This document shows positions 1-13,099 of a DNA stretch of 13,099 nt, piece after piece. Origin of the DNA: Candidatus Kariarchaeota archaeon (GTDB taxonomy: Archaea; Asgardarchaeota; Heimdallarchaeia; Heimdallarchaeales; Kariarchaeaceae); the NCBI GenBank assembly GCA_016839545.1, contig JAEOUB010000001.1, positions 1-13,099 on the forward strand. Reading direction: 5' to 3'. Position numbers and translations under genes: made by a program. The stretch's first letter is position 1, and every line of letters begins with the position of its first letter. The notes under the pieces were generated by a model that did not search any database, was not told the origin of the DNA, and saw nothing but the letters and a program-made list of their open reading frames with translations.

Positions 1-80
1 AACTCACGAGATATCTGGTCAAGGAAGAAGAGATTGTAGCATTTGCCGACCCTATTGTGAAATCAGAGCTTGCTCAATAA
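1..80 (+). CDS. 3' end of an unidentified protein-coding gene (C-terminus ...LTRYLVKEEEIVAFADPIVKSELAQ*)
   Basis: An open frame (phase 3) runs from the window edge to TAA at 78-80. It sits convergent with, and upstream of, the AT-rich promoter region. The product is not recognisable from 25 residues. Confidence 0.3.
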   Translation, partial: LTRYLVKEEEIVAFADPIVKSELAQ

Positions 81-84
81 CTTG

Positions 85-279
85 CTACCAAACATGCCTT
101 CCTGCCAAATTTCCAGCCTCTCTCCTTGAATTTTTACTCAGCTCTGCTTGACTCTGACCGTCCATACTTGCAGACTTGGATTTTCTGAGAGGCCCAAAAA
201 CTGTACGCAGATACAGATATGTGCCCCCAAGCAGAAAAATGACTGAGCCATACCCAATTAGCTCTGCAACAAGACTCAT
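85..279 (-). CDS. possible small membrane protein (one N-terminal TM helix, low-complexity K/S-rich tail)
   Basis: ATG at 279-277. The N-terminus MSLVAELIGYGSVIFLLGGTYLYL is hydrophobic. There is no clear RBS. It is divergent from the flotillin promoter region. An overlapping alternative ORF (134..340) exists. Coding status is uncertain. Confidence 0.2.
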   Translation of the reverse strand: MSLVAELIGYGSVIFLLGGTYLYLRTVFGPLRKSKSASMDGQSQAELSKNSRREAGNLAGRHVW

Positions 280-411
280 TATGGGATAATCTGCGATCCC
301 TTCTCAAAAACGTTGAGTGCGGTGGATATACAGAAATCACGTTTTCTAGGTGGTGTTCTTTGAAATTTGAATATTATACATTCTCTACAAATCTATATGA
401 AATATATATTC

Positions 412-420
412 TATATAAAA
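412..420 (+). promoter_or_regulatory. TATA-box-like element (TATATAAAA) upstream of the flotillin gene, bracketed by the 7-bp inverted repeat CTATATG (393-399) / CATATAG (421-427)
   Basis: An AT-rich 130-nt intergenic region with a canonical archaeal TATA-like octamer about 57 nt upstream of ATG 477. The inverted repeat was read directly from the sequence. Confidence 0.4.
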
Positions 421-462
421 CATATAGAGCTAGCTATTCAGTTACGGTGATGATAAAAATAC

Positions 463-470
463 AGGAGTGA
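463..470 (+). promoter_or_regulatory. ribosome-binding site AGGAGTGA, 6-nt spacer to ATG 477
   Basis: GGAGG/GGTGA-type Shine-Dalgarno, seen directly in the sequence. Confidence 0.55.
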
Positions 471-476
471 AACAAT

Positions 477-1898
477 ATGGCAACACTACCACCAGGAATC
501 TTATGGGGTGGAGGCATACTAGCCTTCCTCATATTCACCGTGGCCGTAATAAAGTCACGCTACAGGAAGTTCACAAACCGCGAGTTTGTGCTCTTCTTCA
601 GAAATGGTAAGCTCAAAGCACAGGGCTACGGTGGCGGTTACTTTTTACTGCCACTTATAGACGAGATTATTATTCTCAGTACTACCGTCCAGCGGCTCGA
701 AGTCGACGTCGCTGAGAAGATTATCACGCAGGAGAACCAAGACCTCCGCGTGTCGGGCTTTATCATCTACCGCATCGAGGATCCCGTTAAGGCCTACCAG
801 GCAATTAGCGGTACCCAAGACAGATCGGTACTGCATGAGCTCAACAAGACGCTCGAGGATCTGGTAGAGAGTATCATCCGAACCACTGTGGCGTCACTGT
901 CACTTGACCAGGTACTCCGAGAGAGAAGCCTGATCATTGAGGCTATCATGTCAGAGATGGTACCTGTGGTCTCACCCATGGGTATTCAGATCAGTACGGC
1001 CGAGATCCGACACGTTGAGGTACTCGACCAGGGTCTCTTTGAGGACCTCCAGGAAGACTATCGTCAAGAGGCGAGATTGAGGGCCGAACAAACCAAGATC
1101 GAGACACAAAGGGAAGTAGCAAAATCTCGAGCTGAGGCAGACCAGGATATTCGATCCCGTGAACTCCAGAGAGACGATGCTGTTCTGATGGAGCAGCAGA
1201 AAGTCCAGGAGACTGAGGAGAAGAGGCGCAGCGCAATCGAGACCTTGCAGAAAGAGCGAGAGGCAAAGGTTGCTGACCTGGACAAGAAGAAGCTGGAGAT
1301 CGAGGCACAGACCCGGTTGATGGAGATCGAATTCGAGGCTGAGTCCAACAAGCGACGACAGCTCCTTGAGACGATCGACATCCAGGCTGAGCAGAAGAAG
1401 CGAATGGCTGAAGCAGATGCTGAGGCAATCCGTGTCGCAGCCATTGCCCGTAAGGAGGCAGTCGAGCTTGATGCTGAGGCAGAGGCCACCAAGCTGAGGA
1501 CGGTTGCTGAGGCTATGAAGGAGTCCCTCCTGGCAGAGGCAGAGGGTCGCAAGGCTCTCCTGCTTGCTGAGGCTGAGGGTCTTCGTGAGAAGGTAAAAGC
1601 CCAGGGTTACGTCAACGAGTCAATGATTATGCAGGAACTTGTGCGTCAATTACCTCACATCGCCTCATCCATGAAAGTCGGGGACATCAACTGGCTCAAC
1701 ATGGGTGGCGGAGAGAGTGGTGACACACCTCTTGGGATCATCCCCAAGAACCTGACCCAGATCATGGCTCTCTCCAAGAGCTTTGGACTGGACATCGAGG
1801 ATCTTGTGCGGACCATCCGTGGTCAGTCCAAGAAGAATGGCAACAATGGCATCGAGGTCATTGAGGCTGTCCAGGACGAAGAGTCGGGGGAATCCTAG
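477..1898 (+). CDS. flotillin-like SPFH/Band-7 domain protein with N-terminal membrane anchor and long EA-rich coiled coil
   Basis: 473 aa. It starts with an N-terminal hydrophobic helix (ILWGGGILAFLIFTVAVI). An SPFH-like region follows (FVLFFRNGKL...GGGYFLLPLIDEIIILSTTVQRLEVDVAEKIITQENQDLRVSGFIIYRIEDP). Then comes about 200 aa of charged heptad-like sequence with AEAEA/EA repeats (AEADAEAIRVAAIARKEAVELDAEAEATKLRTVAEAMKESLLAEAEGRKALLLAEAEGLREK), typical of the flotillin domain. The start is ATG with a good RBS. Confidence 0.88.
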   Translation: MATLPPGILWGGGILAFLIFTVAVIKSRYRKFTNREFVLFFRNGKLKAQGYGGGYFLLPLIDEIIILSTTVQRLEVDVAEKIITQENQDLRVSGFIIYRIEDPVKAYQAISGTQDRSVLHELNKTLEDLVESIIRTTVASLSLDQVLRERSLIIEAIMSEMVPVVSPMGIQISTAEIRHVEVLDQGLFEDLQEDYRQEARLRAEQTKIETQREVAKSRAEADQDIRSRELQRDDAVLMEQQKVQETEEKRRSAIETLQKEREAKVADLDKKKLEIEAQTRLMEIEFEAESNKRRQLLETIDIQAEQKKRMAEADAEAIRVAAIARKEAVELDAEAEATKLRTVAEAMKESLLAEAEGRKALLLAEAEGLREKVKAQGYVNESMIMQELVRQLPHIASSMKVGDINWLNMGGGESGDTPLGIIPKNLTQIMALSKSFGLDIEDLVRTIRGQSKKNGNNGIEVIEAVQDEESGES

Positions 1899-1927
1899 GC
1901 CCAGTAGTCTACAGTCATGACCAGCTC

Positions 1928-2218
1928 ATGGCTGCAGTGGCAGTCTATGACAGCCACGGAGACCTGCTGGGGTTCGATGTGGATGGAGACGGCGATGCCG
2001 ACTTCACCATGCCCCAAGGCCTGTCTCTGATCGTGGACGACGATGGCTACATCGAGGGATTTGATCTCTCCGGTGATGGCACTGTCGACTACGCCATTGA
2101 CACCTTCAGCTCTCTGGCTGCTATCGACCTGAAGGGAGATGTGATCATCGATGGTCTCTCTCTGGATGGTCAGGCAGACATTGATATCAACCTGCGAGAT
2201 GTGGCACAGCTCTTCTGA
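1928..2218 (+). CDS. small acidic Asp/Gly-rich protein with repeated DxDGDG / DxSGDG (EF-hand/dockerin-like Ca-binding loop) motifs
   Basis: 96 aa, lying 30 nt downstream of flotillin on the same strand. Motifs are DVDGDGDADF, DLSGDGTVDYAID and DGLSLDGQADID. A hairpin plus T7 terminator lies about 90 nt downstream. There is no obvious RBS. An antisense ORF (1895..2284) overlaps it, so coding status is moderately uncertain. Confidence 0.45.
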   Translation: MAAVAVYDSHGDLLGFDVDGDGDADFTMPQGLSLIVDDDGYIEGFDLSGDGTVDYAIDTFSSLAAIDLKGDVIIDGLSLDGQADIDINLRDVAQLF

Positions 2219-2310
2219 GCACGGCTCACTTGGGGAATACTCTCCTGAGCACGGCTCTCCTGAGTACTGACACTGATCAACCATACACCATACTCGTAGA
2301 ACCTAGTTGG

Positions 2311-2333
2311 CGGGGGGAGACCCCCGTTTTTTT
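2311..2333 (+). terminator. intrinsic-type terminator: 6-bp GC stem (CGGGGG/CCCCCG), 4-nt loop GAGA, followed by TTTTTTT
   Basis: cggggggagacccccgttttttt was read directly. It lies at the end of the flotillin/acidic-protein transcription unit and immediately before the next promoter. Confidence 0.55.
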
Positions 2334-2365
2334 ATGCGCACCTCTGTTGAATTCGTCTCACATTG

Positions 2366-2373
2366 TTTATATG
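2366..2373 (+). promoter_or_regulatory. TATA-like box TTTATATG about 40 nt upstream of ATG 2414
   Basis: AT-rich octamer at the expected distance for an archaeal promoter that gives a short 5' leader. Confidence 0.35.
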
Positions 2374-2413
2374 CAAATTTCTGTCTATAGGGGTAGTGTC
2401 CAGCCACACGTTC

Positions 2414-3514
2414 ATGCTCTATCTGCAGGTGGTCATTACCACTACCCTGGTAGTTATTCTTGCATACGAGTACAGATCACGCAGGATAGAACCGTTGAAA
2501 TGGATACTGGCAGTGGTCATCACTGCCTTTGCAAGGTCCCTGTTTGATATCGGTGTTGAATTCACTGGCTATGCTGACAAACCCGTGGCTCAGCTGGAAT
2601 TTGCCATCACCGGGCTGGGATTTCTCCTGCTCTACATCTACCTGGAGCTGACACTCTACAACCGCCCCTACTTCAGTCGTTTTACCATCATGCTGACGTT
2701 GTTTGGCAGTTTTCTCGGTCTGCTGCTCTATACGGTGCTGGCAGATACTCTACCCTATCCTGCTCGATGGCCACTACCTGTCGGTCCACAGTCTCCCCGC
2801 TTTTTCGAGTTTCCCTTTGACCTGTTCTCCATTGCAGTCTGGTCACTGGCAGTCTACACCTTCTACCGGATGTACTCGCACGCCATCACAAAAGGGGTGA
2901 GGCAGATCACCCTGACTCTGACCATTGCTGCAGCAATCTTTCTTGTAGTCCAGCTGATTGAGTTCACTGAGTTCTTCTTCATCTATGACAATCCACCAGA
3001 GGCAACAATTGTGGCACTTCCCGGATTTCTCCTCATCGTCTTTGTCTATATCAAGCAGCCAAGTTTCAGCTACTCAAGCCCGGTACGTCTCTACCGTCTG
3101 ATGATATTTCACAAGAATGGTCCCTCTATTCTCAGCCTGACTATAGATCAGAAGTACCGGGAGAGCCAGCATGACCCCACCCTGGTCGGAGGACTGGCCA
3201 GCTCGTTGAATACAGCATACATGGAGATCACCCAGCAGCAGTCAGGCAGTATCCGCAAGCTGACTATGGATCGAGTCACCTTTGTCTTCACCCGGGCAGA
3301 CGATATCTTCACCATCTTGGAGATAGAGAGGTCCACCCATGTGATACGCTCTGCTCTTCGCAGTTTTACCAAAGCATTCTCAGAGCACTTTGCCAGGGAG
3401 ATTGATCGTGCTGGCAAGGGTGTTTTCGAATTTGAGGGCTACGAGGAATTATTCTACCGCTACTTCCCATTTGTTGTAGATATCGAGCAGGACCCTGCCG
3501 AAAATGCTCCTTGA
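2414..3514 (+). CDS. polytopic membrane protein (about 6 to 7 TM helices) with C-terminal cytoplasmic alpha/beta domain (about 140 aa, longin/roadblock-like beta-beta-alpha-beta-beta-beta-alpha pattern)
   Basis: The ORF-track start at 2363 is TTG. The first ATG is at 2414 (MLYLQVVITTTLVVILAY...), which fits the TATA box at 2366. Hydrophobic segments run through about residue 230. The C-terminal soluble region is RLYRLMIFHKNGPSILSLTIDQ...LVGGLASSLNTAYMEI...IRKLTMDRVTFVFTRADDIFTILEIE...HVIRSALRSFTKAFSEHF. No family was recognised with certainty. Confidence 0.7.
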   Translation: MLYLQVVITTTLVVILAYEYRSRRIEPLKWILAVVITAFARSLFDIGVEFTGYADKPVAQLEFAITGLGFLLLYIYLELTLYNRPYFSRFTIMLTLFGSFLGLLLYTVLADTLPYPARWPLPVGPQSPRFFEFPFDLFSIAVWSLAVYTFYRMYSHAITKGVRQITLTLTIAAAIFLVVQLIEFTEFFFIYDNPPEATIVALPGFLLIVFVYIKQPSFSYSSPVRLYRLMIFHKNGPSILSLTIDQKYRESQHDPTLVGGLASSLNTAYMEITQQQSGSIRKLTMDRVTFVFTRADDIFTILEIERSTHVIRSALRSFTKAFSEHFAREIDRAGKGVFEFEGYEELFYRYFPFVVDIEQDPAENAP

Positions 3515-3526
3515 TATCAATGTGAA

Positions 3527-4051
3527 TCAGAATCCCTTGATTTGAACATCTCGTGTGGTACTGTAGGGCAGAGCAATGAGTGCAGATGCCATATCGCCAA
3601 AATGACCACCAAATTGCCACTCCGGATCCAGTATCTGACGCAGGTAGCTCATCTGGTTGCTGTGGGCAAGTATGTGGTGAAGAAGTCGTGAGGCGATATA
3701 CCCCGGTCCTTTCTTTCCATTGATCTCTTCCAGTTGAGAGTCTGTAATTGAGCTGAGGAGATCTCGCATGGTTGCAAATCCCTGCTCAATGATGTCCTCC
3801 ACTGCTGCAAGAGACAGGGGATAACTGACCTCCTTGCAGGTCCAGGGTACTACCTCCCATGGCTTGGGATCTGAGAGGTGAGAGGTCATCCACGCAGTGC
3901 AGTGAATTGCAATCTGACCGATGGTCATCTTGTGCTCAGCAAAGACGTGATTGAGGTGTTCCTCCGAAATCCCCTCAAGAGGTGCCCTCAACCCATTATA
4001 GAAAGTGGGAATGATGGCAAGAAGTGCATCGCAATTGGCTCGTTCACTCAT
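3527..4051 (-). CDS. DinB/YfiT-like (DinB_2 four-helix-bundle, His-triad) family protein
   Basis: 174 aa. The histidines are spaced as in DinB_2 metal-binding proteins (NHVFAEHKMTIGQIAIHCTAW ... HHILAHSNQM). ATG 4051 directly abuts the TAA of the upstream FMN-reductase gene (TAAATG), indicating cotranscription. Confidence 0.5.
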   Translation of the reverse strand: MSERANCDALLAIIPTFYNGLRAPLEGISEEHLNHVFAEHKMTIGQIAIHCTAWMTSHLSDPKPWEVVPWTCKEVSYPLSLAAVEDIIEQGFATMRDLLSSITDSQLEEINGKKGPGYIASRLLHHILAHSNQMSYLRQILDPEWQFGGHFGDMASALIALPYSTTRDVQIKGF

Positions 4052-4657
4052 TTATTCCATCCCCGGGTTCTTTGGTGCAGTCTCCCATTCTTTCATGAAT
4101 TGGTCAATCTGCCTGGAGTTATGGAGTACTGAGAAGCGGGTAACCTGACGTCCCACTGTCCTGATCCTCTCAACCAGTCGCTCATCGGTCAGCTCCTCAC
4201 CTTCAAAATGCGATGAGACATTGGGCAGAGATGCCTGTTCGGGGATGACCCAGGCATGCAGCTGTCTTCCAATTGCTCTCAGTCCATTCAGGGCGTTGAT
4301 TGCTCCGAGGGCACCTCCACCCACACCAACCAGTCCGATCATCTTACCCTCGAATTCTGCAAAGCCCATGAGGTCCAGCATGTTCTTGATCACACCTGAA
4401 AAGCTTCCATGGTACTCTGGAGTGCCAAGAATAACACCCTGGGCACTGGCTATCTTTTCCTTCAATCGGCTCACATCATCAGGCATCTCGTCTCGAGGAA
4501 CCTGAAATGGAAACAGCAGGTGATACTCGGCAAGATCGATGAGCTCAGTCTGTGCTCCCATTTCCCTTGCAGCATCCAGTGCAATCTGAACGACTTTTTT
4601 GGTATAGCTCCCTGATCGTAAACTTCCCACGATTCCGATGATTCTTGGATTGTCCAT
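4052..4657 (-). CDS. NAD(P)H-dependent FMN reductase family flavoprotein (flavodoxin-like fold)
   Basis: The N-terminal RIIGIVGSLRSGSYT motif (LRxGS phosphate-binding loop of the PF03358-type FMN reductases) is present, together with GTPEYHGSFSG and a central GxGGG stretch. The ORF-track start at 4669 is a TTG; the first ATG (MDNPRIIGIVGS...) is at 4657. Confidence 0.85.
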   Translation of the reverse strand: MDNPRIIGIVGSLRSGSYTKKVVQIALDAAREMGAQTELIDLAEYHLLFPFQVPRDEMPDDVSRLKEKIASAQGVILGTPEYHGSFSGVIKNMLDLMGFAEFEGKMIGLVGVGGGALGAINALNGLRAIGRQLHAWVIPEQASLPNVSSHFEGEELTDERLVERIRTVGRQVTRFSVLHNSRQIDQFMKEWETAPKNPGME

Positions 4658-4703
4658 CACTATGCTCAAGCTAGGAGTGTGATTGATAGAGGTTATGGTC
4701 TAT

Positions 4704-6848
4704 TTACTTGATCTTGCTACCGGTGTCAACATCTTTGAACGGGGTGAGGAATGATACAGTCTTACCATCCTCTGCTGCCAGTAGCATCCCCTCGGACTTG
4801 ATCCCCCGCAACTTGGCAGGCTTGAGATTATCAACAATGATTATAGTCTGCCCTTCCAGCTCCTCAGGTTGATAGAACTCGCGGATACCGGCAACAATAG
4901 TCCGGTCATCACGCTCTCCATCATCCACAGTGAGTACCATCAGCTTGTCAGCTTTGGGGTGGGGTTCGGCCTTGAGTACTTTGACAGCCTTGAGCTTGAC
5001 CTTCTCAAAGTCATCGTAATCAATATACTTTGACTTCTTGCCCTCTTTCTCCTTGGAATCTTCATTGTTCTTGGATTTCTTCTCTTTCTTTTCTTTCTTC
5101 GATTTAGATTTCTTCGATTTCTTGGACTTCTCTTCTTTTGATTCAGATGATCCGAAGCGTTCCTTCAGTTTCTCGATATCCTTGTTGGGTATCTTCTCAA
5201 AGAGATTTCCTTTCAATTCAGGTACAGAGGTACCAGCCAGTGAACTGAAATCGAGGAGATCATCCCACTTTATCTCATGTACATCTTCAGGTTGCAATCC
5301 AATCGACTCGAATACTCTCTGCGATGTGTGAGGTGCAAACGGTGCCAGCAAGATGGCGCTGAGACGCAGTCCATGAGCTAGAGTAGCCACAGTCGTGGCA
5401 GTGTCTGCCTTGGTTGCCTCTTCTTTCACAGTTGCCCAGGGCTGCTTGTCCTGGAAGTATCGGTTCAATTCCTGCCAGATTGCTCTCAATGCCTTCAGTG
5501 GCTTTTGAAACTCGACCTTGCTGAACTCGGTATCATACTCTGTCACCAGTTCTGCAATTCTGGTCTGCAATTCCTCCTCTCTGTCACCCGGGACACCTTC
5601 AGGAATGGTATCATCAAAATGACGTGACACAAAGGTTGAGAACCGATTGACAAGATTGCCCAGCAGGTTATTCAGATCATTGTTCACTGCATTCTGAAAA
5701 CCATCCCACTGGAAATCTGTATCCTGTCTTTCAGGAGAGATTAACATCAGGTAATACCTCCAGTAGTCTGCAGGATACAGCTCAAGTGCCTGATCGGTAA
5801 AGATACCTCTATTTTGTGAGCTGGAGAATTTTCCTCCTTCATATGTTAGCCACTGTGATCCCTTGATGAAATTGGTCAGGTTGTAGGGTTTGTCATTATT
5901 GTCATTGAATCCCAGCATTGTACCTGGAAAGGTGATAGCGTGGAAGGGGACATTGTCAATTCCGATGAACTGGTAATAGTCAGTGTTGGTATCATGCCAG
6001 AAGGCATCAAACAGCTCTGGTTTCTTAACTATCTTGTCGGCCCACTTCTTGGTAATCGAGATATATCCGATCGGTGCGTCAAACCAGACGTAGAATACCT
6101 TGTCATCATGACCCTCAATTGGTAGATCGATTCCCCAACTTAGGTTACGAGTGATAGCTCTAGCTTGCAGACCCTCGTTCAACCACTTCTTCGCAATTGA
6201 GATTGAGGTCTGTGGCCATCCAGTCTGTGTATCAATCCATTCCTTGATCTTTGGCTCCAATGCAGGAAGATCAATATAGAAATGAGTGACATCGCGTTTC
6301 TCAAGGTTTTCACTTCCAGAAATTGCTGATCTTGGATTGATGAGATCTTGAGGATCAAGCAGGGTCGTACAGTTCTCACACTGGTCTCCCCTGGCACGGT
6401 CATACTCACAGTGAGGGCAGGTGCCGATGACATATCTGTCAGGAAGGTATCGCTCATCATCAAGGCTGTAGAGCTGAACGTCAGTCTTTTCCAGAATATA
6501 CCCATTCTCTTGGAGCTTTAGGAAAATATCTTGGGTGATATCATGGTTTTCCTGGTCGTGTGTCCTTCCAAAGTAATCAAAGCCAATACCGAATTCATCG
6601 TATATCCTCTTCTGTGTCTCATACATCTCATCACAGAACTCAGCAACATCCTTACCAGCTTCATGTGCTGACAGTTCAGCCGGAGTACCATGATCATCTG
6701 TTCCACAGATATAGATCACGTCTTTGCCCTTGAGCTTGAGATACCGACAATAGACATCTCCTGGTAGGATTGAACCCACCAGATTGCCAAGGTGTTTAAT
6801 TGAGTTAATGTACGGAAGTGCACTTGTGATGATAGTACGGTCGGTCAT
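4704..6848 (-). CDS. metG: methionyl-tRNA synthetase, archaeal/eukaryotic-type, with Zn knuckle, polylysine linker and C-terminal EMAP-II/Trbp111-like tRNA-binding domain
   Basis: A HIGH-region variant is present (ALPYINSIKHLGN), as are the CxxC...CxxC knuckle (CPHCEYDRARGDQCENC) and a KMSKS variant (KFSSSQNRG). The C-terminal OB-fold domain reads LKAVKVLKAEPHPKADKLMVLTVDDGE...GQTIIIVDNLKPAKLRGIKSEGMLLAA. The ORF-track start at 6854 is TTG; ATG 6848 is preceded by AGGTGA (6855-6860) with a 6-nt spacer. Confidence 0.95.
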   Translation of the reverse strand: MTDRTIITSALPYINSIKHLGNLVGSILPGDVYCRYLKLKGKDVIYICGTDDHGTPAELSAHEAGKDVAEFCDEMYETQKRIYDEFGIGFDYFGRTHDQENHDITQDIFLKLQENGYILEKTDVQLYSLDDERYLPDRYVIGTCPHCEYDRARGDQCENCTTLLDPQDLINPRSAISGSENLEKRDVTHFYIDLPALEPKIKEWIDTQTGWPQTSISIAKKWLNEGLQARAITRNLSWGIDLPIEGHDDKVFYVWFDAPIGYISITKKWADKIVKKPELFDAFWHDTNTDYYQFIGIDNVPFHAITFPGTMLGFNDNNDKPYNLTNFIKGSQWLTYEGGKFSSSQNRGIFTDQALELYPADYWRYYLMLISPERQDTDFQWDGFQNAVNNDLNNLLGNLVNRFSTFVSRHFDDTIPEGVPGDREEELQTRIAELVTEYDTEFSKVEFQKPLKALRAIWQELNRYFQDKQPWATVKEEATKADTATTVATLAHGLRLSAILLAPFAPHTSQRVFESIGLQPEDVHEIKWDDLLDFSSLAGTSVPELKGNLFEKIPNKDIEKLKERFGSSESKEEKSKKSKKSKSKKEKKEKKSKNNEDSKEKEGKKSKYIDYDDFEKVKLKAVKVLKAEPHPKADKLMVLTVDDGERDDRTIVAGIREFYQPEELEGQTIIIVDNLKPAKLRGIKSEGMLLAAEDGKTVSFLTPFKDVDTGSKIK
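5035..5160 (-). other. low-complexity polylysine linker within MetRS (ESKEEKSKKSKKSKSKKEKKEKKSKNNEDSKEKEGKKSK), encoded by CTT/TTC-rich repeats
   Basis: Seen directly. It lies between the catalytic/anticodon-binding body and the C-terminal tRNA-binding domain. Confidence 0.8.
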
Positions 6849-6998
6849 TTGCAATCACCTGCTGGGAAGACATAATTTGAATATGGACTAACGTAATTGT
6901 GACATGATAGCTTAAAATTATTAGAAGGCCATTTGGCAGTCACCAGGTAGTCTCATGTTCCTCCTCAACCTCTAATATGGCTACCTATCCTTAAATGT

Positions 6999-7289
6999 TT
7001 AGTTTTTCAATCCTCCACCTGCAGGAGGCAGAATAGTTATCTCATCACCGTCTGAAATACCAATACCGGTCATAGCACCTCGATCAAGTTTTTCCTCATT
7101 CAGGATGTAAATAAAATGATTACTCCACCCCTCAGAAGATTGAAGGTGGGTTTTGAGATCAGGATACCGGTCAACCAGAATATCCAGGGCTTCTCCAACA
7201 GTAGACCCGGTGAGCTCCAGCTCTACACGTCTGTCACCAATAACCTCCCGGATCATTGCAAAACTTCGGATAGTAATTCTAATTGTCAT
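6999..7289 (-). CDS. MoaD/ThiS/SAMP-type small ubiquitin-like protein (beta-grasp) with Gly-Gly followed by a short C-terminal extension (..ILPPAGGGLKN*)
   Basis: It aligns by eye with MoaD: MTIRITIRSFAMIREVIGDRRVELEL corresponds to the MoaD N-terminal strand plus 'FAxxRExxG', and DGDEITILPPAGGG to MoaD 'DGDEVAFFPPVTGG'. The likely start is ATG 7289-7287, directly after GGTG. This overlaps the last 11 nt of the upstream 748-aa gene. The ORF-track start at 7331 would add a 14-aa non-homologous leader. Confidence 0.75.
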   Translation of the reverse strand: MTIRITIRSFAMIREVIGDRRVELELTGSTVGEALDILVDRYPDLKTHLQSSEGWSNHFIYILNEEKLDRGAMTGIGISDGDEITILPPAGGGLKN

Positions 7290-9525
7290 CACCTTTAATC
7301 TCAAAGTATTGGAGCAGACTGTCGAGATCAAGTTCTACCATTTTACCAGAGAGATCCACGTTGAATGGGATGACTGAAACTGCTGCATTATACTGTCTTG
7401 GATTTGAGAAAAGAGGTATACGAAGAGTATTTCCTGTATGCTCTCCAATATGTGTGTAGATGTGACCTGTTGGTTCTGATGCATGATAGAACTGATCTGC
7501 CAGGGTGTAGAATTTGATACCATCAATTCCACTCTCAATAATAAGTTCCATATTCTGCGCCAGTTCAAAGAAGCCTATCAGGATCTCATCACCTATCATA
7601 CCTGTAGTCTCCTGTTTTTGGTTAATAAACTTGAGTTCAATTGATTTCATACTCTTGTTCAGGGCTTCGATTGTCATTCTCTGGGCGATATCCCAGTCTT
7701 TTACCATGGAGCGATACTCATCTGCAAGGTACTCAGTGGTGATATCGTCTTCACTAATCCCGATAAGATCCATTTGGCTCCTAAACACTGACGCCATGTA
7801 CTGGAAGTTGATATATTCCACAAAAGCAAGAGCGTGTTGATTCCTCTCATAGTATGCCTGAATGATGTGTACGTGAATGATTGAAATAATTGGCGAGATT
7901 ATCAGCAAAAAGTCCTGGTAAACTGTAGTGCCATTCTGAAAGATCTCCAACCAGCTGACCAGGTAAAAGAACAGTTGTTCAAGCAGATGGATGGGCAGAG
8001 ATCCTGTCCGGTTGTAGACCTTCTTCACAAGGTCCATAATCTCACTTGCCATAATGATAAATTCACGTTCGAAGGTAGATGAATTCACAATGGACCCGGT
8101 TTTTCCAGATTCTTCTTGAATTCGCTCTACAAGCTCAGTAATAGGTGTCCAATCTGCAAGTAGTTCCAAGTGCTTGAGAAAGAGATTGTTCTCAATGCTA
8201 TTTGGTTTCAGTTCAGTCAGTTTTGCAATGAAGGAAAATTCTTCCCAGGTATTCCTGCTCCGCTGTAACAGAACCATCCCATGATAGGAGTTTTGTATGA
8301 TTTCAATTAATGTCCTGCAGGCTTTTCTGAATTCAGGTTCTTTCTTCGATCTTATCTCAAGATATTCAACAAGCACTGCATCAGCAGGTTTGTCTTCCTC
8401 TAACAGTGATATTGCTCCTTTATACAAAATTGAGGAAAGTTGGTACAGGAGTTCTGTTATCTCGGCTTTCTCTGACGACTCCATCAACTCAAGCATGTAC
8501 TCTCTAAGAAGCTGTTCCATTGCAGAGAAACCGTTCCAAAGGTATACCTTCAGCAGATAGTCCGTATCAGATTTCAAGATATTGTCAAACAATTCTTCCA
8601 GCGAGATGTCATCGAAAGTGAAGTAGCTGGCAAGCAACCTCATTACAAGCTGTCTATTGTGAACAAAAGAGATATTGTACTTGTAATATTCCAAACCAAT
8701 TTTCGCAAAGATAATCGCGACGAGGTATCTATACGATTTAAGTTCTAGATCTGAGTACTTGTGCTCGAGATCAATCCATATTCGGCTTGTTAGATCGAAC
8801 ACCTCCCCTATCCTGTCATAACCCAGAGTTACCAATCCTCTTGTCAACAGAGTCAGCAAAATCACCCTCTTGGATGGATTATCCTGTGCTTCCTTTAGTT
8901 CTGACTCAAAGATATTGAGAAGGACAACGAGAATGGGTTCATATTTCTGGAAGCGGCCAAGGTCGTCTCGACGCAGATCAATCAGGTCTTCGAATAATAA
9001 CCATAGATCTCTCATTTTCCAAAATTTGTAATCATTTGTCAGATTTTCCAGTATCCTCCCTCTTGCAATAGAAAGCACAGGTGACTGTTCCACAAATTGA
9101 CGGATAAGCTCAGAATGATACCCAGTAGTTTCCCATTTGATGAGCCCTGAGAATAGAATTTTGACCTCTTCAACAAATAGGAGCTCAACCTTTTCCCATC
9201 CTGCCAGTCCTGCATGCCTTGACAGCATAACCAGATATTTATCAACCACTCCCCAGCCAATTTTATCCCTGTTGATTACCAATATATGTCGACAGAAATC
9301 AGATATTTGATCTTCGTCGAGTCTTTCCAGCTCCTTTTGCAAACCATGTCCATCTAGAATATACTCTAGGTTGGGACGTCTCTCATTCATGAGTGCATCA
9401 AGGATCTGCACAAATTTAGAGGAGTGAAGTAGACCCGTAGTCGGATAATTATAAGGGTCAGGAGGCTCTTGTGCTAGATATTCCATACTGGGCAGAGTGA
9501 AGAACCCGACAGGAATATCGTCCAT
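7279..9525 (-). CDS. large (748 aa) predominantly alpha-helical protein of unknown function; His-rich C-terminal segment HASEPTGHIYTHIGEHTGN
   Basis: A long uninterrupted ORF with an ATG start. Hydrophobic residues alternate with charged residues in an amphipathic-helix pattern throughout. No P-loop, Rossmann or Cys-cluster motifs were found. The gene is translationally coupled to the downstream ubiquitin-like gene and divergent from the Rab-like GTPase gene. Confidence 0.8.
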   Translation of the reverse strand: MDDIPVGFFTLPSMEYLAQEPPDPYNYPTTGLLHSSKFVQILDALMNERRPNLEYILDGHGLQKELERLDEDQISDFCRHILVINRDKIGWGVVDKYLVMLSRHAGLAGWEKVELLFVEEVKILFSGLIKWETTGYHSELIRQFVEQSPVLSIARGRILENLTNDYKFWKMRDLWLLFEDLIDLRRDDLGRFQKYEPILVVLLNIFESELKEAQDNPSKRVILLTLLTRGLVTLGYDRIGEVFDLTSRIWIDLEHKYSDLELKSYRYLVAIIFAKIGLEYYKYNISFVHNRQLVMRLLASYFTFDDISLEELFDNILKSDTDYLLKVYLWNGFSAMEQLLREYMLELMESSEKAEITELLYQLSSILYKGAISLLEEDKPADAVLVEYLEIRSKKEPEFRKACRTLIEIIQNSYHGMVLLQRSRNTWEEFSFIAKLTELKPNSIENNLFLKHLELLADWTPITELVERIQEESGKTGSIVNSSTFEREFIIMASEIMDLVKKVYNRTGSLPIHLLEQLFFYLVSWLEIFQNGTTVYQDFLLIISPIISIIHVHIIQAYYERNQHALAFVEYINFQYMASVFRSQMDLIGISEDDITTEYLADEYRSMVKDWDIAQRMTIEALNKSMKSIELKFINQKQETTGMIGDEILIGFFELAQNMELIIESGIDGIKFYTLADQFYHASEPTGHIYTHIGEHTGNTLRIPLFSNPRQYNAAVSVIPFNVDLSGKMVELDLDSLLQYFEIKGDDN

Positions 9526-9742
9526 AATATCCTTGGAATGGTATTGGGATATTTCAACATTTTTCTGTCAATTCTAGGATGAGTTGGAAAAACCTAATTT
9601 GATGGTGAATAGGAGGGATTCCAATAATTTATAGCTACAGATTTCCCATACATACATCTAGAGCAATTAATACAAAAAAATGATATGAAATTGACTTGTG
9701 ATAGTAGCTTTTATTTTCTATCATCTCTGAGGAAGATTACCT

Positions 9743-10306
9743 GTGTCAAGCACAAAGAAAACCCGTACAAGTTACAAGGTTGTTTTACTAGGTGATCCAC
9801 GGGTAGGGAAAACAAGTATCAGACGAAGCTATCTTGGTGCAGTATTCGAGCAGGATTACAACGTAACGCTGGGTGCGGATTTTGCTGTCAAACGTCTTCC
9901 TGATAATAACAATGTCTTGCAGATCTGGGATCTTGCCGGCCAAGCTGTCTATAAATCGGTAAGAAGTGGATATTACAAAGGTGCTGAAGGAGCAATCCTA
10001 ATCTACGATATAACACGCCCCGAGACCTTCAAGAATGTCGCAAAATGGCTTGATGAAATGCTATCCGTTTCCGATCAGATGATACCTTTGATACTTGTTG
10101 CCAACAAGATAGATCTGAAAACTGATGGTTCCCCCTTTGTATCACACAAGGACGGGAAGAACTATGCTGATGTGCTTACAAATTGGAGCGGATTCGATGT
10201 TCCCTATATCGAGTCTTCTGCAATGACTGGGGAGAATATCGACAAAATATTCCAGGATCTCATTGGAGAGATTGAAGTTCTGAAAAGCACTGAGCAGGGT
10301 AATTAA
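9743..10306 (+). CDS. Ras-superfamily small GTPase, Rab/Ran-like, lacking C-terminal Cys lipidation motif
   Basis: G1 LLGDPRVGKTS. Switch I / G2 YNVTLGADF (compare Rab TIGVDF and Ran TLGVEV). G3 WDLAGQ. The Rab-like stretch YYKGAEGAILIYDITRPETFKNVAKW is present. G4 VANKIDL (NKxD). G5 ESSAMTGENI (SAK-like). The start is GTG, preceded by GAGGAAG. The stop overlaps the Rad50 stop on the opposite strand. Confidence 0.85.
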   Translation: MSSTKKTRTSYKVVLLGDPRVGKTSIRRSYLGAVFEQDYNVTLGADFAVKRLPDNNNVLQIWDLAGQAVYKSVRSGYYKGAEGAILIYDITRPETFKNVAKWLDEMLSVSDQMIPLILVANKIDLKTDGSPFVSHKDGKNYADVLTNWSGFDVPYIESSAMTGENIDKIFQDLIGEIEVLKSTEQGN

Positions 10307-13086
10307 GGATCCACATAATGCCCACGTATACCATCCACAATTTGTAACCTGATACTATTTTCAGCATTTCTATCAAACTCGACCTTGTGAGTCACCAGAA
10401 GTAGTTGTCCTTTAGAGGCTGTAAATAGTTGTTCTCTATCTATGATCTCCATAAACTCCTCAATACGTTTTTGGTCAAGATGGTTCGTTGGCTCATCAAG
10501 GGTGAGAAAGTTGAGAGGGGCCACAAATTCGGCAAGGGCTAACCTCAGTGCAAGTGCCAGTACTGTTTTCTCCCCACCTGAAAGAGTGTTCTTGTCAATA
10601 CTGTATTGACCATTGTAAAGATGGACATCACCATCATTCTGGAATGCAACCTTGTTAAATCCTTGATTTGGAAGCATCCGTTTCATCATATTGGTGAGAT
10701 ATGATGAAATCTGAGATGCTGTTTTTGAAATCAGAAGCTCAGGAGCGTCTTGCAAAATACTTTCGTATTTTTCGGAAAGATGGTGTAACTTTCTCAATTC
10801 ATCAACTTCATCATTGAGGCGTAACAGGTTAATTTCTTGTTCTTCTGCTTTTTGCAATGTGTTTTTCAATTCCTCAAGTCTCTCATCGATATTCTTGATC
10901 CTCTCTTTCAACCCTCCTAGCATAGATATCGCATCTGCCAGCTCTGTATCCAATTTCTCCAATTCTTTGCCATCAAATTCCTTCTCCAATTCAGCCTTCT
11001 CTTCTTTGTCTTTGGATAACTGCTTTCCGAGTTCTTTCAGTCTCCTTGATATTCTATCCATATCCCTAGCCGAGGGGATAATTATATCATTGAGTGTCTG
11101 GATCTCCTGATTTAGTTTTTTGACCTCATCTCCCTCTTTCTCAAGCGACTTATTCAGTCTTTCAATATCGATTTTTTGGTTTTCATCTGATAGTTTCGCC
11201 ATTCTCTCTTTCATTGACTGTATATTAGCTTCCAGAACTTCGGTTTCTTTTTGTAATTTCTGCAGAGTTTTCTTATCGGTCTCAAGCTTTGATCTCTCCG
11301 TCTTGTATTGATCAACACTTTTCGATTTTAGCTCTTCATAGGCTTTTGATGCCACATTTTTGTCTTTGTCTAGTTTTCCAAGCTCTACTTTGATCTTCTC
11401 TAACTCAGTCTGTTTGGTCTGATTATACTCTAGCGTCTTTACAAATTGGTGGAGTTTGGGCAATTTATCTTCAATTTCTGTAAGTCTGATCTGAAGTTGG
11501 TCAATATTCTCTTTCAAATTGCCGGATTTAGCATTTTGACGACCATTTTCATCCGTCAGGCGATGTATAATATCCTGTTGAGTTCTGAGCAATTCACTTG
11601 TGTCCATTCCCTCGAATGGCCTGCGGCAAATTGGGCAATCATGATCTTCATGTGAGGTAAGCAATTCAATTGTCTGTTGTACTGTATCAATCTCCTTCTT
11701 CGTACTGGCTGATTTCTCTAGCAACTCCTCTCTCGTTGTTTTCAGCTGTTCCAGGGCGATGGTTGTTTTTTCCTTCTCACTCATTGCGGAAGATAGTAGC
11801 TCATTGACATTTGCGATATTTTGGTCAAATACCTTCCGGAATTCCGTCTCGTTTGCCAGTATTTCACCTTCAAGTTTCTCTATCTTCGATTTCAGCTCAA
11901 GATCTGTGCTGACAAATGTCTCATATTTTTCTTTTAATCGGGTTAATTCACTCTCATAATTGGCTATTTTCTCTGTTAACTCCTGTATCTTTGTCTCTCT
12001 TACATTTTCAGTCATCTCTTCCTCTATCTCTTTTGAAGAGCTCTTCTTGGTGTCAAGGTCACTCTTATTCTGAATATGTTCTTTTTCTAGTTTTTCAAGT
12101 TCTTCAGCTCTCTTCTCATAATTCTCTTTGATATTAATGTTGGTGGAAATAGATTTCGTTAATTTCAATAAGCTTGAGCTTTTGGTCTGCAGTAACCTAT
12201 CAGCACCATCTGTATCAATTTTGTCCCATCCAAAGCTGTCACGATAGTTATCAAGTTTTGACGAGTTATCCTTAAGATCAGATGAGAGGTCACTTGTTTC
12301 CTTTTCAGCAGTTGTAATCCTGCTCAGAACAATTTCAATGGTATTCTTTTTCTGTTTTAGAGTTTGAACCCTGGTTTCAAGAGAACTTATCCGTCCTGCC
12401 GTCGCGGTGATTTCTTGCTTGACTGATTCCTGTTTCTTCTCTTGAGCAGTGATGTCTGCTTGTACCTCATTCTTGTCGGTTTTCGTTTCGTCAATAGCAG
12501 CGATTTTGAACTGATTAGATTCAATTTTACTTGCTACAAATTTACCATAGTTTCTCATCACATTTCCAGTTTTCGCAAAGCTCTCCAGTCCTAATATTTT
12601 CCTGACCTGTTTACTGCGCTCTCCAGGTGTATCTCGTAACAGATCAGTTAACTCTCCCTGCCGAGCACACAACGCAGCCTTGAAGGTGTTAGCATCGATA
12701 CCTTCCCCGATGAGGGATTGGATCATCTCCTTAGACGGAGTCACTCCATCTGCTAGTACTTTATCGCTCCCTTTCTCATAGACCTTCCATACATCTGAAC
12801 CTGATGCTCTGATATGGTGTCGGCTGACAAATGTACCTTCAGGGGTTGTAAATGTAAGTTCAATTTTCCCTTTCTCAGCATCTCTTTTTACCAAATCTCC
12901 ATTTGTGAGATTAAGTCCTGTGAGGTAACTATTACCGTACAGACCGAATCCGATTGACGTGATAATCGTTGATTTTCCAGAACCGTTCGGTCCTGAGATC
13001 ACGTTCACACCCTCGTTGAATCTGAACGTTATTTTCTCAAAACACTTGATATCTTCAAGCACTAGTCGTTCAATTCTGAGGTACAT
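10303..13086 (-). CDS. rad50: Rad50 DNA double-strand-break repair ATPase (SMC-like ABC ATPase with long coiled coil and zinc hook)
   Basis: The N-terminal Walker A is FNEGVNVISGPNGSGKSTI. About 600 aa of K/E-rich coiled coil follow, containing the central zinc hook HDCPICRRPF (CPIC codons at about 11625-11636 on the + strand). The C-terminal signature LSGGEKTVLALALRLALAE is present, with Walker B/D-loop LTLDEPTNHLD and H-loop LLVTHK. At 927 aa it matches archaeal Rad50 in length. Confidence 0.95.
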   Translation of the reverse strand: MYLRIERLVLEDIKCFEKITFRFNEGVNVISGPNGSGKSTIITSIGFGLYGNSYLTGLNLTNGDLVKRDAEKGKIELTFTTPEGTFVSRHHIRASGSDVWKVYEKGSDKVLADGVTPSKEMIQSLIGEGIDANTFKAALCARQGELTDLLRDTPGERSKQVRKILGLESFAKTGNVMRNYGKFVASKIESNQFKIAAIDETKTDKNEVQADITAQEKKQESVKQEITATAGRISSLETRVQTLKQKKNTIEIVLSRITTAEKETSDLSSDLKDNSSKLDNYRDSFGWDKIDTDGADRLLQTKSSSLLKLTKSISTNINIKENYEKRAEELEKLEKEHIQNKSDLDTKKSSSKEIEEEMTENVRETKIQELTEKIANYESELTRLKEKYETFVSTDLELKSKIEKLEGEILANETEFRKVFDQNIANVNELLSSAMSEKEKTTIALEQLKTTREELLEKSASTKKEIDTVQQTIELLTSHEDHDCPICRRPFEGMDTSELLRTQQDIIHRLTDENGRQNAKSGNLKENIDQLQIRLTEIEDKLPKLHQFVKTLEYNQTKQTELEKIKVELGKLDKDKNVASKAYEELKSKSVDQYKTERSKLETDKKTLQKLQKETEVLEANIQSMKERMAKLSDENQKIDIERLNKSLEKEGDEVKKLNQEIQTLNDIIIPSARDMDRISRRLKELGKQLSKDKEEKAELEKEFDGKELEKLDTELADAISMLGGLKERIKNIDERLEELKNTLQKAEEQEINLLRLNDEVDELRKLHHLSEKYESILQDAPELLISKTASQISSYLTNMMKRMLPNQGFNKVAFQNDGDVHLYNGQYSIDKNTLSGGEKTVLALALRLALAEFVAPLNFLTLDEPTNHLDQKRIEEFMEIIDREQLFTASKGQLLLVTHKVEFDRNAENSIRLQIVDGIRGHYVDP
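11622..11639 (-). other. Rad50 zinc-hook (CxxC) coding segment at the apex of the coiled coil
   Basis: Reverse complement of gcaaattgggca encodes C-P-I-C; flanking His/Asp (HEDHDCPICRRPFEG). Confidence 0.8.
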
Positions 13087-13099
13087 CTATTCATCCCCC

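Follow-up and report, generated by a model that had tools for sequence, protein, structure and literature searches.

A 13,099-nt stretch of a Candidatus Kariarchaeota archaeon genome (contig JAEOUB010000001.1 of assembly GCA_016839545.1, positions 1 to 13,099 of the forward strand; hereafter the window) holds a gene whose product is almost certainly an Asgard Rab-like small GTPase of the Kariarchaeaceae, within the Heimdall group. The overall explanation that we find best, and highly probable, is a soluble Rab-like switch belonging to the clade of Thor-Rab, the Rab of Candidatus Thorarchaeota. The protein is in this respect a further member of a large, catalogued class with a solved structure, and adds little by itself. 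New, in a modest way, are the lineage-specific Pro-Arg pair in its P-loop and a conserved neighbourhood in which the GTPase gene stands next to a gene for an orphan 748-aa protein, here called BIG, and a gene for a ubiquitin-like protein (Ubl). Asgard small GTPases are central to arguments over the origin of eukaryotic membrane trafficking and their partners are almost uncharacterised. GTPase genes generally lie outside operons with candidate regulators (Tran et al. 2024, PMC10933270), so that genome layout is a poor guide to their GTPase-activating proteins (GAPs) or guanine nucleotide exchange factors (GEFs). The locus described here offers one concrete pairing: a conserved GTPase whose neighbours are a helical orphan that evolves fast and a Ubl.

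The breadth of the similarity excludes a chance match. Pfam Ras (PF00071) recognises the protein at E = 5.1e-41 and 140.4 bits (cutoff 21.6) and TIGR00231 small_GTP at 80.8 bits (cutoff 42.5), while searches returned 857 PDB sequences at E <= 0.001 and 2217 homologues. The best PDB match is the Thorarchaeota Rab 7EZB (E = 3.5e-40, residues 10-174 aligned), and the remaining top-60 matches are all eukaryotic Rabs (Rab11, Rab7/Ypt7, Rab1, Rab12, RABA1a). Counts over 120 given below refer to the best 120 of the 2217 homologues. All 120 come from metagenomes or metagenome-assembled genomes (MAGs), and the named ones are listed as GTP-binding protein or 'Rab family GTPase' of Heimdallarchaeota, Heimdallarchaeaceae or Kariarchaeaceae. 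Gene prediction made independently on the NCBI MAG contig JBSWSM010000038.1 (GCA_054391395.1) yields an identical protein. No antisense open reading frame (ORF) of at least 60 aa competes with the GTPase gene, whose sole overlap is one of 4 nt with the Rad50 gene. These two genes are convergent and their stop codons overlap at positions 10303-10306, in the palindrome TTAA, which leaves no space for an intervening terminator; the same 4-nt overlap recurs in L007, one of the related loci compared below.

The hallmarks of the Ras superfamily were all found, namely profile scores above cutoff, GxxxxGK[ST], the G2 Thr, DxxG(Q), NKxD and SA[K/L/M]. An earlier note on this DNA, written from its letters and ORF translations, had placed five intact G-boxes in the ORF, and motif mapping located each of them there (GDPRVGKT, Thr42, DLAGQ, NKID and SSAM; Table 1). 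Its description of the P-loop as intact holds for the fit to GxxxxGK[ST], but the loop is atypical, and the Pro19-Arg20 pair had been overlooked. The canonical G1-G5 elements would bind Mg-GTP, with Thr42 and Gly66 sensing the gamma-phosphate and Gln67 placing the hydrolytic water, as expected of a stand-alone GDP/GTP molecular switch. That the protein works as a functional switch is, judging from these motifs, very probable.

Table 1. Coordinates of the GTPase gene, its motifs and the accompanying features in the window.
Feature	Position	Strand	Remarks
Rab-like small GTPase gene	9743..10306	+	187 aa, GTG start, stop included; basis ORF, Pfam and PDB
G1/P-loop GDPRVGKT	9791-9814	+	Pro19-Arg20 equivalent to Ras Gly12-Gly13
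G2/switch-I Thr42	9866-9868	+	preceding residue Val41 (Thor-Rab: Arg37)
G3/switch-II DLAGQ	9929-9943	+	includes catalytic Gln67
G4 NKID (guanine specificity)	10103-10114	+	motif mapping
G5 SSAM	10214-10225	+	motif mapping
AT-rich intergenic region, 217 bp	9526..9742	.	between the divergent GTPase and BIG genes; promoters inferred
BIG, orphan 748-aa all-alpha protein with small N-terminal beta-hairpin	7279..9525	-	AlphaFold2 (AF2) model; no family match
MoaD/SAMP1-type ubiquitin-like protein (Ubl), 96 aa	6999..7289	-	Pfam ThiS, TIGR01687 and PDB profile matches
Membrane protein, 383 aa (372 in the MAG gene call)	2363-3514	+	no family match

Placement among the families of the superfamily was approached with reference sequences, of which Rab7A and Rab1A were validated by bit scores the same as those of PDB chains. 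Against these, phmmer ranked Thor-Rab first (140 bits), followed by Rab7 (103), Rab1 (102), Rab11 (98), Ran (78), Rap1 (72), HRas (62), Rac1 (55) and Arf (ARF1 and ARF6, 22-25), and gave no match between the GTPase and M. xanthus MglA. A neighbour-joining tree (Kimura distances, 200 bootstraps), which has few references and an unreliable deep node, groups the GTPase with Heimdall and Kari homologues at 96% bootstrap, with Thor-Rab joining at 87.5%. This Asgard clade falls outside Ras/Rap/Rheb and Rho, and among the few references used the GTPase is not nested within the eukaryotic Rabs. Arf/Sar are excluded at 95.5% and MglA, the outgroup, at 100%. The earlier note had proposed a Rab/Ran-like, non-prenylated GTPase of Asgard type, and both the order of the PDB matches, Thor-Rab and then Rabs, and the Asgard clade of the tree bear this out; a grouping with MglA or Era, which it named as the contrary outcome, was not what the tree gave, the clade lying outside MglA and Arf, and the protein is neither MglA- nor Era-type.

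A bacterial-type GTPase akin to MglA, Roc or Era, or a member of the Arf family, that merely resembles Rab would account for the lower-scoring Pfam families, Roc at 98 bits and Arf at 51 bits. We find this barely credible in view of the low Arf and missing MglA scores and the bootstrap values that set Arf/Sar and MglA apart from a clade uniting Rab, Ran, Ras and Rho. The protein is moreover a single domain of 187 aa and lacks a COR domain, unlike the multidomain Roc + COR architecture of ROCO proteins; it has neither an N-terminal amphipathic helix nor Gly2, and no roadblock/MglB gene is adjacent to it. MglA also differs by its intrinsic switch-I Arg, where the GTPase has Val41, and there is no roadblock gene anywhere in the window.

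With the Rab-like assignment retained, the position of the Asgard clade relative to Rab and Ran is less sharply drawn: it stands beside eukaryotic Rab and Ran at only 51.5% bootstrap in this crude distance tree, which does not separate the three. Compared with the eukaryotic RabF consensus (IGVDF, KLQIW, RFRSIT, YYRGA, LVYDIT), the GTPase is identical at 17/27 positions. RabF2, RabF4 and RabF5 are nearly intact (VLQIW, YYKGA, LIYDIT), RabF1 agrees at 3/5 positions and RabF3 at 1/6. The likeness of the segment after switch II to Rab and Ran, which the earlier note had stressed, is seen in RabF4 and RabF5; the match to the RabF motifs overall is partial.

The best eukaryotic matches, Rab7, Rab1/Ypt1 and Rab11 (98-103 bits), have the catalytic Gln in common with the GTPase. 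They differ from it by a C-terminal hypervariable region and prenylatable Cys, by RabF3, which the GTPase does not conserve, and by Thr in DTAGQ and Ser-Gly in the P-loop, where the GTPase has Leu and Pro-Arg. We speak of 'Rab-like' and not of 'Rab' since the GTPase lacks the prenylation motif that defines Rabs. Ran resembles the GTPase in its YY..A.....D(I/V)T segment, in not being prenylated and in being unseparated from it in the distance tree, but it scores lower than the Rabs, and its acidic DEDDDL tail and C-terminal helix are missing from the GTPase.

Two of these traits belong, in the alignment of homologues, to the whole clade, and both have already been published for Thor-Rab (PMC10933270): the Leu in DLAGQ and the cysteine-less tail. 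DLAGQ is present in 115/120 homologues, and 0/120 carry a Cys within the last 10 residues or a prenylation-type motif. The GTPase itself contains no cysteine over its whole length; its N-terminus (MSSTKKTRTSY) is polar and basic and its C-terminus reads ...EVLKSTEQGN. The replacement of the eukaryotic Asp-Thr by Asp-Leu and the lack of CC/CxC at the C-terminus had therefore been described correctly in the earlier note. With no cysteine and no C-terminal extension prenylation is impossible, and the GTPase would be soluble unless recruited by a protein partner. Asgard archaea yielded no homologues of REP, GDI or RabGGTase (PMC10933270).

Thor-Rab (Candidatus Thorarchaeota SMTZ1-45, KXH73347.1; PDB 7EZB, 7EZD and 7EZE; PMC10933270) is the closest solved relative of the GTPase. 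Besides their common Asgard clade, the two share a single-domain build, WDLAGQ, RabF-like motifs and a truncated, cysteine-less C-terminus. For Thor-Rab, Tran et al. 2024 described RabF1-F5-like motifs, the truncation and the absence of cysteines, and measured an intrinsic GTPase activity comparable to that of Rab11B (PMC10933270). The proteins come from distinct Asgard lineages, Thorarchaeota and Kariarchaeaceae, and their differences lie partly around the nucleotide. The P-loop of Thor-Rab is the canonical GDGAVGKT, where the GTPase has GDPRVGKT, and Val41 takes the place of Arg37 of Thor-Rab switch I, a residue that has been equated with the intrinsic arginine finger of MglA (PMC10933270). 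The GTPase is also ~8 residues longer from G4 to G5 and has a short, basic extension at its N-terminus. The size of the class to which both belong can be judged from a 2026 structural survey of Asgard small GTPases, which comprised 932 representative structures and 59 clusters (PMC12962969).

The P-loop is where this lineage departs from the rest. We compared the GTPases with a verified neighbourhood (the linked group, see below) with 93 more distant homologues: Pro19 of the linked group corresponds to Gly in 86/93 of the distant sequences, Arg20 to Ala in 64/93 and Tyr70 of switch II to Phe in 91/93. The group-specific residues P19, R20, V41 and Y70 cluster in the nucleotide pocket, and the high conservation of the GTPase continues through the switch regions. 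Pro at the first of the two P-loop positions occurs in 28/120 homologues, 24 of these being among the 34 closest, and the complete Pro-Arg pair in 15/120.

A precedent for the Pro is H-Ras G12P (PDB 1JAH), which carries it at the equivalent position. That protein is an engineered Ras mutant, whereas the Pro of the GTPase is natural, conserved in its lineage, set in a Rab-like scaffold and followed by Arg. H-Ras G12P is non-transforming and keeps intrinsic hydrolysis, and its pyrrolidine ring blocks RasGAP action (PMC6662853). Taken together with the intact Gln67, this behaviour leads us to infer that the GTPase would hydrolyse GTP intrinsically and be refractory to a GAP that works through an arginine finger. 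By this analogy the P-loop of the lineage may be GAP-refractory, a prospect that we place somewhat below an even chance, and the GTPase would then be a self-timed switch, or one under a non-canonical factor. A GAP-independent cycle of this kind would, if real, shift the design of GAP-hunting experiments toward intrinsic rates. Two considerations temper the proposal. The analogy comes from Ras, whereas eukaryotic Rabs, which tolerate Ser at the Gly12-equivalent position, remain open to TBC GAPs with their arginine finger, so that Pro-Arg may act differently within a Rab-like scaffold. In addition, the P-loop varies among the orthologues that are linked to the gene trio, with Ala-Arg in P0004 and Pro-Ala in P0014.

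The same residues can be read in another way, as the mark of a locked or pseudo-GTPase that is constitutively GTP-bound like Rnd and RhoH and serves as a binding module with no switch. In its favour, the Pro-Arg pair is lineage-specific, and substitutions at positions 12 and 13 of Ras generally impair GAP-stimulated hydrolysis (PMC6662853). Among the substitutions of Ras G12, nevertheless, Pro alone leaves intrinsic hydrolysis in place and is non-transforming (PMC6662853), and the retention of Gln67, Thr42 and all G-boxes, along with strong conservation across the switch regions, makes a locked protein improbable in our judgement.

Turning from the GTPase to its surroundings, the gene order of the window is flotillin/SPFH, a 96-aa acidic protein, a 383-aa membrane protein, a DinB-like protein, FMN reductase, MetRS, Ubl, BIG, the GTPase and Rad50, with Mre11 following Rad50 just beyond the window. 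The intergenic region between the GTPase and BIG genes contains a TATA-like TTTTATTT ~30 nt upstream of the GTPase GTG and a TATAAA on the minus strand at ~9625-9633. The neighbourhood was compared across GTPase homologues 51-82% identical to the window copy, which represent six distinct genomes (the window, equal to L001; L002; L003, L004 and L009, counted as one; L005 and L006, likewise one; L007; L008). The GTPase, BIG and Ubl genes lie side by side in 6/6 genomes, with BIG proteins of ~750-780 aa. Ubl follows BIG immediately and co-directionally in 6/6, either overlapping it or 3-48 nt apart, an arrangement consistent with co-transcription; in the window the start of Ubl overlaps the stop of BIG by 11 nt. 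Identity to the window copy is 51-82% for the GTPase and 54-69% for MetRS, which makes the GTPase as constrained as a tRNA synthetase, and falls to 29-38% for Rad50, 29-35% for Ubl and 23-33% for BIG.

BIG matches nothing in Pfam, NCBIfam, PADLOC or the PDB sequences, whether the single sequence or a 27-member profile is used. An exhaustive HMMER search among 1.84 billion representatives delimits its family to 40 clusters at 50% identity, with lengths nearly all of 720-790 aa. The AF2 model built on a 27-sequence alignment (predicted local distance difference test, pLDDT, 81.7; predicted template modelling score, pTM, 0.81) has an N-terminal beta-hairpin followed by ~30 helices; a model from a 2-sequence alignment reached a pLDDT of 55.7 and was discarded. 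Fold comparison returned generic helical-repeat matches only, and neither sequence nor fold revealed significant similarity to TBC, DENN, Vps9, Sec7, Cdc25, RasGAP, RhoGAP, longin/roadblock or karyopherin proteins. The idea raised in the earlier note, that the 748-aa neighbour might stimulate GTP hydrolysis by the GTPase, finds no support here, as the AF2 model contains no GAP- or GEF-like fold. The Pro-Arg P-loop likewise argues against a classical GAP role, and going by the model a role as effector or scaffold would be the better fit.

A more far-reaching picture would make the protein a Ran-like GTPase and BIG its karyopherin-like, GTP-dependent cargo adaptor, in effect a precursor of the Ran/importin-beta pair. 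BIG is indeed long and all-alpha, several karyopherins appear in its Foldseek list, the Asgard clade, Rab and Ran are unseparated in the tree and the Ran score reaches the 78 bits given above. A Pfam scan of the 13-kb window returned no RCC1-, RanGAP- or RanBP-like gene, and we hold this picture to be very unlikely.

Two further ideas about BIG and its neighbours were dropped. A catalytic cluster of His34, His60, Asp76 and His80 in the N-terminus of BIG, seen with five sequences, dissolved when 27 were aligned, only His80 being near-invariant, and a defence-system reading of the GTPase-BIG-Ubl trio found no PADLOC match.

Ubl is the more readily classified of the two neighbours. TIGR01687 moaD_arch recognises it at 63.4 bits (cutoff 49.5), the SAMP1 equivalog scores 49.1, below its cutoff of 60, and the PDB profile matches are MoaD 2M19 and SAMP1 4HRO/3PO0. 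Like archaeal MoaD/SAMP1 proteins it has a beta-grasp and a Gly-rich PPxGGG terminus, and this C-terminal motif is present in all six orthologues. The window copy differs from the archaeal MoaD/SAMP1 proteins by an extra LKN and by its coupling to the orphan BIG and not to MoaE or an E1. Its sequence ends PPAGGG-LKN (7002-7019, minus strand), and the five other orthologues stop directly after GGG. If it is conjugated or thiocarboxylated, the window Ubl would, by analogy with eukaryotic ubiquitin precursors, need C-terminal processing.

The conserved neighbourhood suggests BIG as the likeliest partner of the GTPase, as effector, scaffold or regulator, its gene being translationally coupled to that of Ubl. 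We regard a functional link between the GTPase and BIG as plausible but tentative and rate a link between BIG and Ubl higher. Still more speculative is a dedicated three-gene module, in which the Pro-Arg GTPase lineage would act with BIG and Ubl as a GAP-independent timer controlling a scaffold tied to Ubl conjugation or sulfur transfer. Were it true, this would be the first partner assignment by genome layout for an Asgard Rab-like GTPase, and a case of a natural Pro at the Ras-G12 position.

To the contrary, the neighbourhood may be functionally meaningless, an inherited Kariarchaeaceae gene order with the real GTPase partners encoded elsewhere, and to this we give an even chance. Several of our own observations weigh against a link. 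The syntenic block Mre11-Rad50-GTPase-BIG-Ubl-MetRS includes clearly unrelated housekeeping genes, and MetRS and Rad50/Mre11 have no plausible tie to a Rab-like switch, so the adjacency of the GTPase and BIG genes may likewise be inherited. The two genes are divergent in 5/6 genomes, hence not one operon and not co-transcribed there. BIG evolves fast beside a conserved GTPase, unlike what a tight obligate complex would lead one to expect, and its fold recalls none of the known GEFs, GAPs or effectors. BIG paralogues exist that have no GTPase, four tested members of its family outside the closest group having neither a GTPase nor a Ubl neighbour. Distant Rab-like paralogues (46-51% identity), in turn, have other neighbours, unrelated to BIG. 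For MK-D1, too, Tran et al. (PMC10933270) reported that operons seldom join a GTPase gene to a candidate regulator.

Inheritance of gene order fits less well with the persistence of the adjacency through rearrangement. In L003/L004/L009 the GTPase gene alone is inverted (L003 10001-10549), so that GTPase, BIG and Ubl follow one another on one strand, and in L005/L006 Rad50/Mre11 are not adjacent while the GTPase-BIG-Ubl trio is still kept. The adjacency has likewise been kept in genomes with a MetRS identity of only 54-69%, a divergence at which the order of genes outside operons is usually lost.

Some observations on related loci stand beside these results. In one of the six genomes only, three genes stand directly before the MetRS-Ubl-BIG-GTPase block (L005 2539-4613, L006 3-2041); they encode a membrane protein of the Yip1 family, an E1-like enzyme of ThiF type and a small ubiquitin/Rad60-SLD-like protein. 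Eukaryotic Yip1 proteins interact with Rabs, and the E1-like enzyme could serve Ubl. Distant Heimdall Rab-like paralogues are trailed on the same strand by large orphan proteins, of 1314 aa in L013 (6001-10563) and of 762 aa in L015 (2960-9065), and a Robl_LC7 roadblock gene lies ~2.5 kb upstream in L015. These two proteins and one of 771 aa in L011 were considered as relatives of BIG and proved unrelated to it; even so, Rab-like GTPases may recurrently be paired with large orphan proteins.

In the window itself, the membrane protein encoded at 2363-3514 is hydrophobic over its N-terminal two-thirds and has a soluble C-terminal domain of ~140 aa. The earlier note had called it longin-like and a possible regulator of the GTPase. 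At the sequence level, Pfam gave no longin, SNARE-like or roadblock match at E < 0.03 and a search of PDB sequences no credible one, so that the label has no sequence support. The protein is absent from the neighbours of the GTPase in the other genomes.

Directly downstream of flotillin/SPFH, a very acidic protein of 96 aa (1928-2218, plus strand) carries DxDGDG / SGDG-type repeats and has no Pfam match; it may bind calcium and be a partner of flotillin. No tRNA or Rfam family was detected in the window. Its base composition is uneven, with a G+C of ~0.50-0.55 over positions 1-4500 (flotillin to FMN reductase) and of ~0.39-0.44 over 5000-13099 (MetRS to Rad50). Most genes of the left part lack synteny with the related genomes, and the G+C-rich part could be an acquired segment or reflect gene-specific composition. 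MetRS contains a 42-residue low-complexity linker rich in Lys, Ser and Glu (SSESKEEKSKKSKKSKSKKEKKEKKSK...; residues 569-610, positions 5025-5150, minus strand) between its anticodon-binding domain and its C-terminal tRNA-binding domain. The linker is reminiscent of the Lys-rich appendages found on eukaryotic tRNA synthetases.

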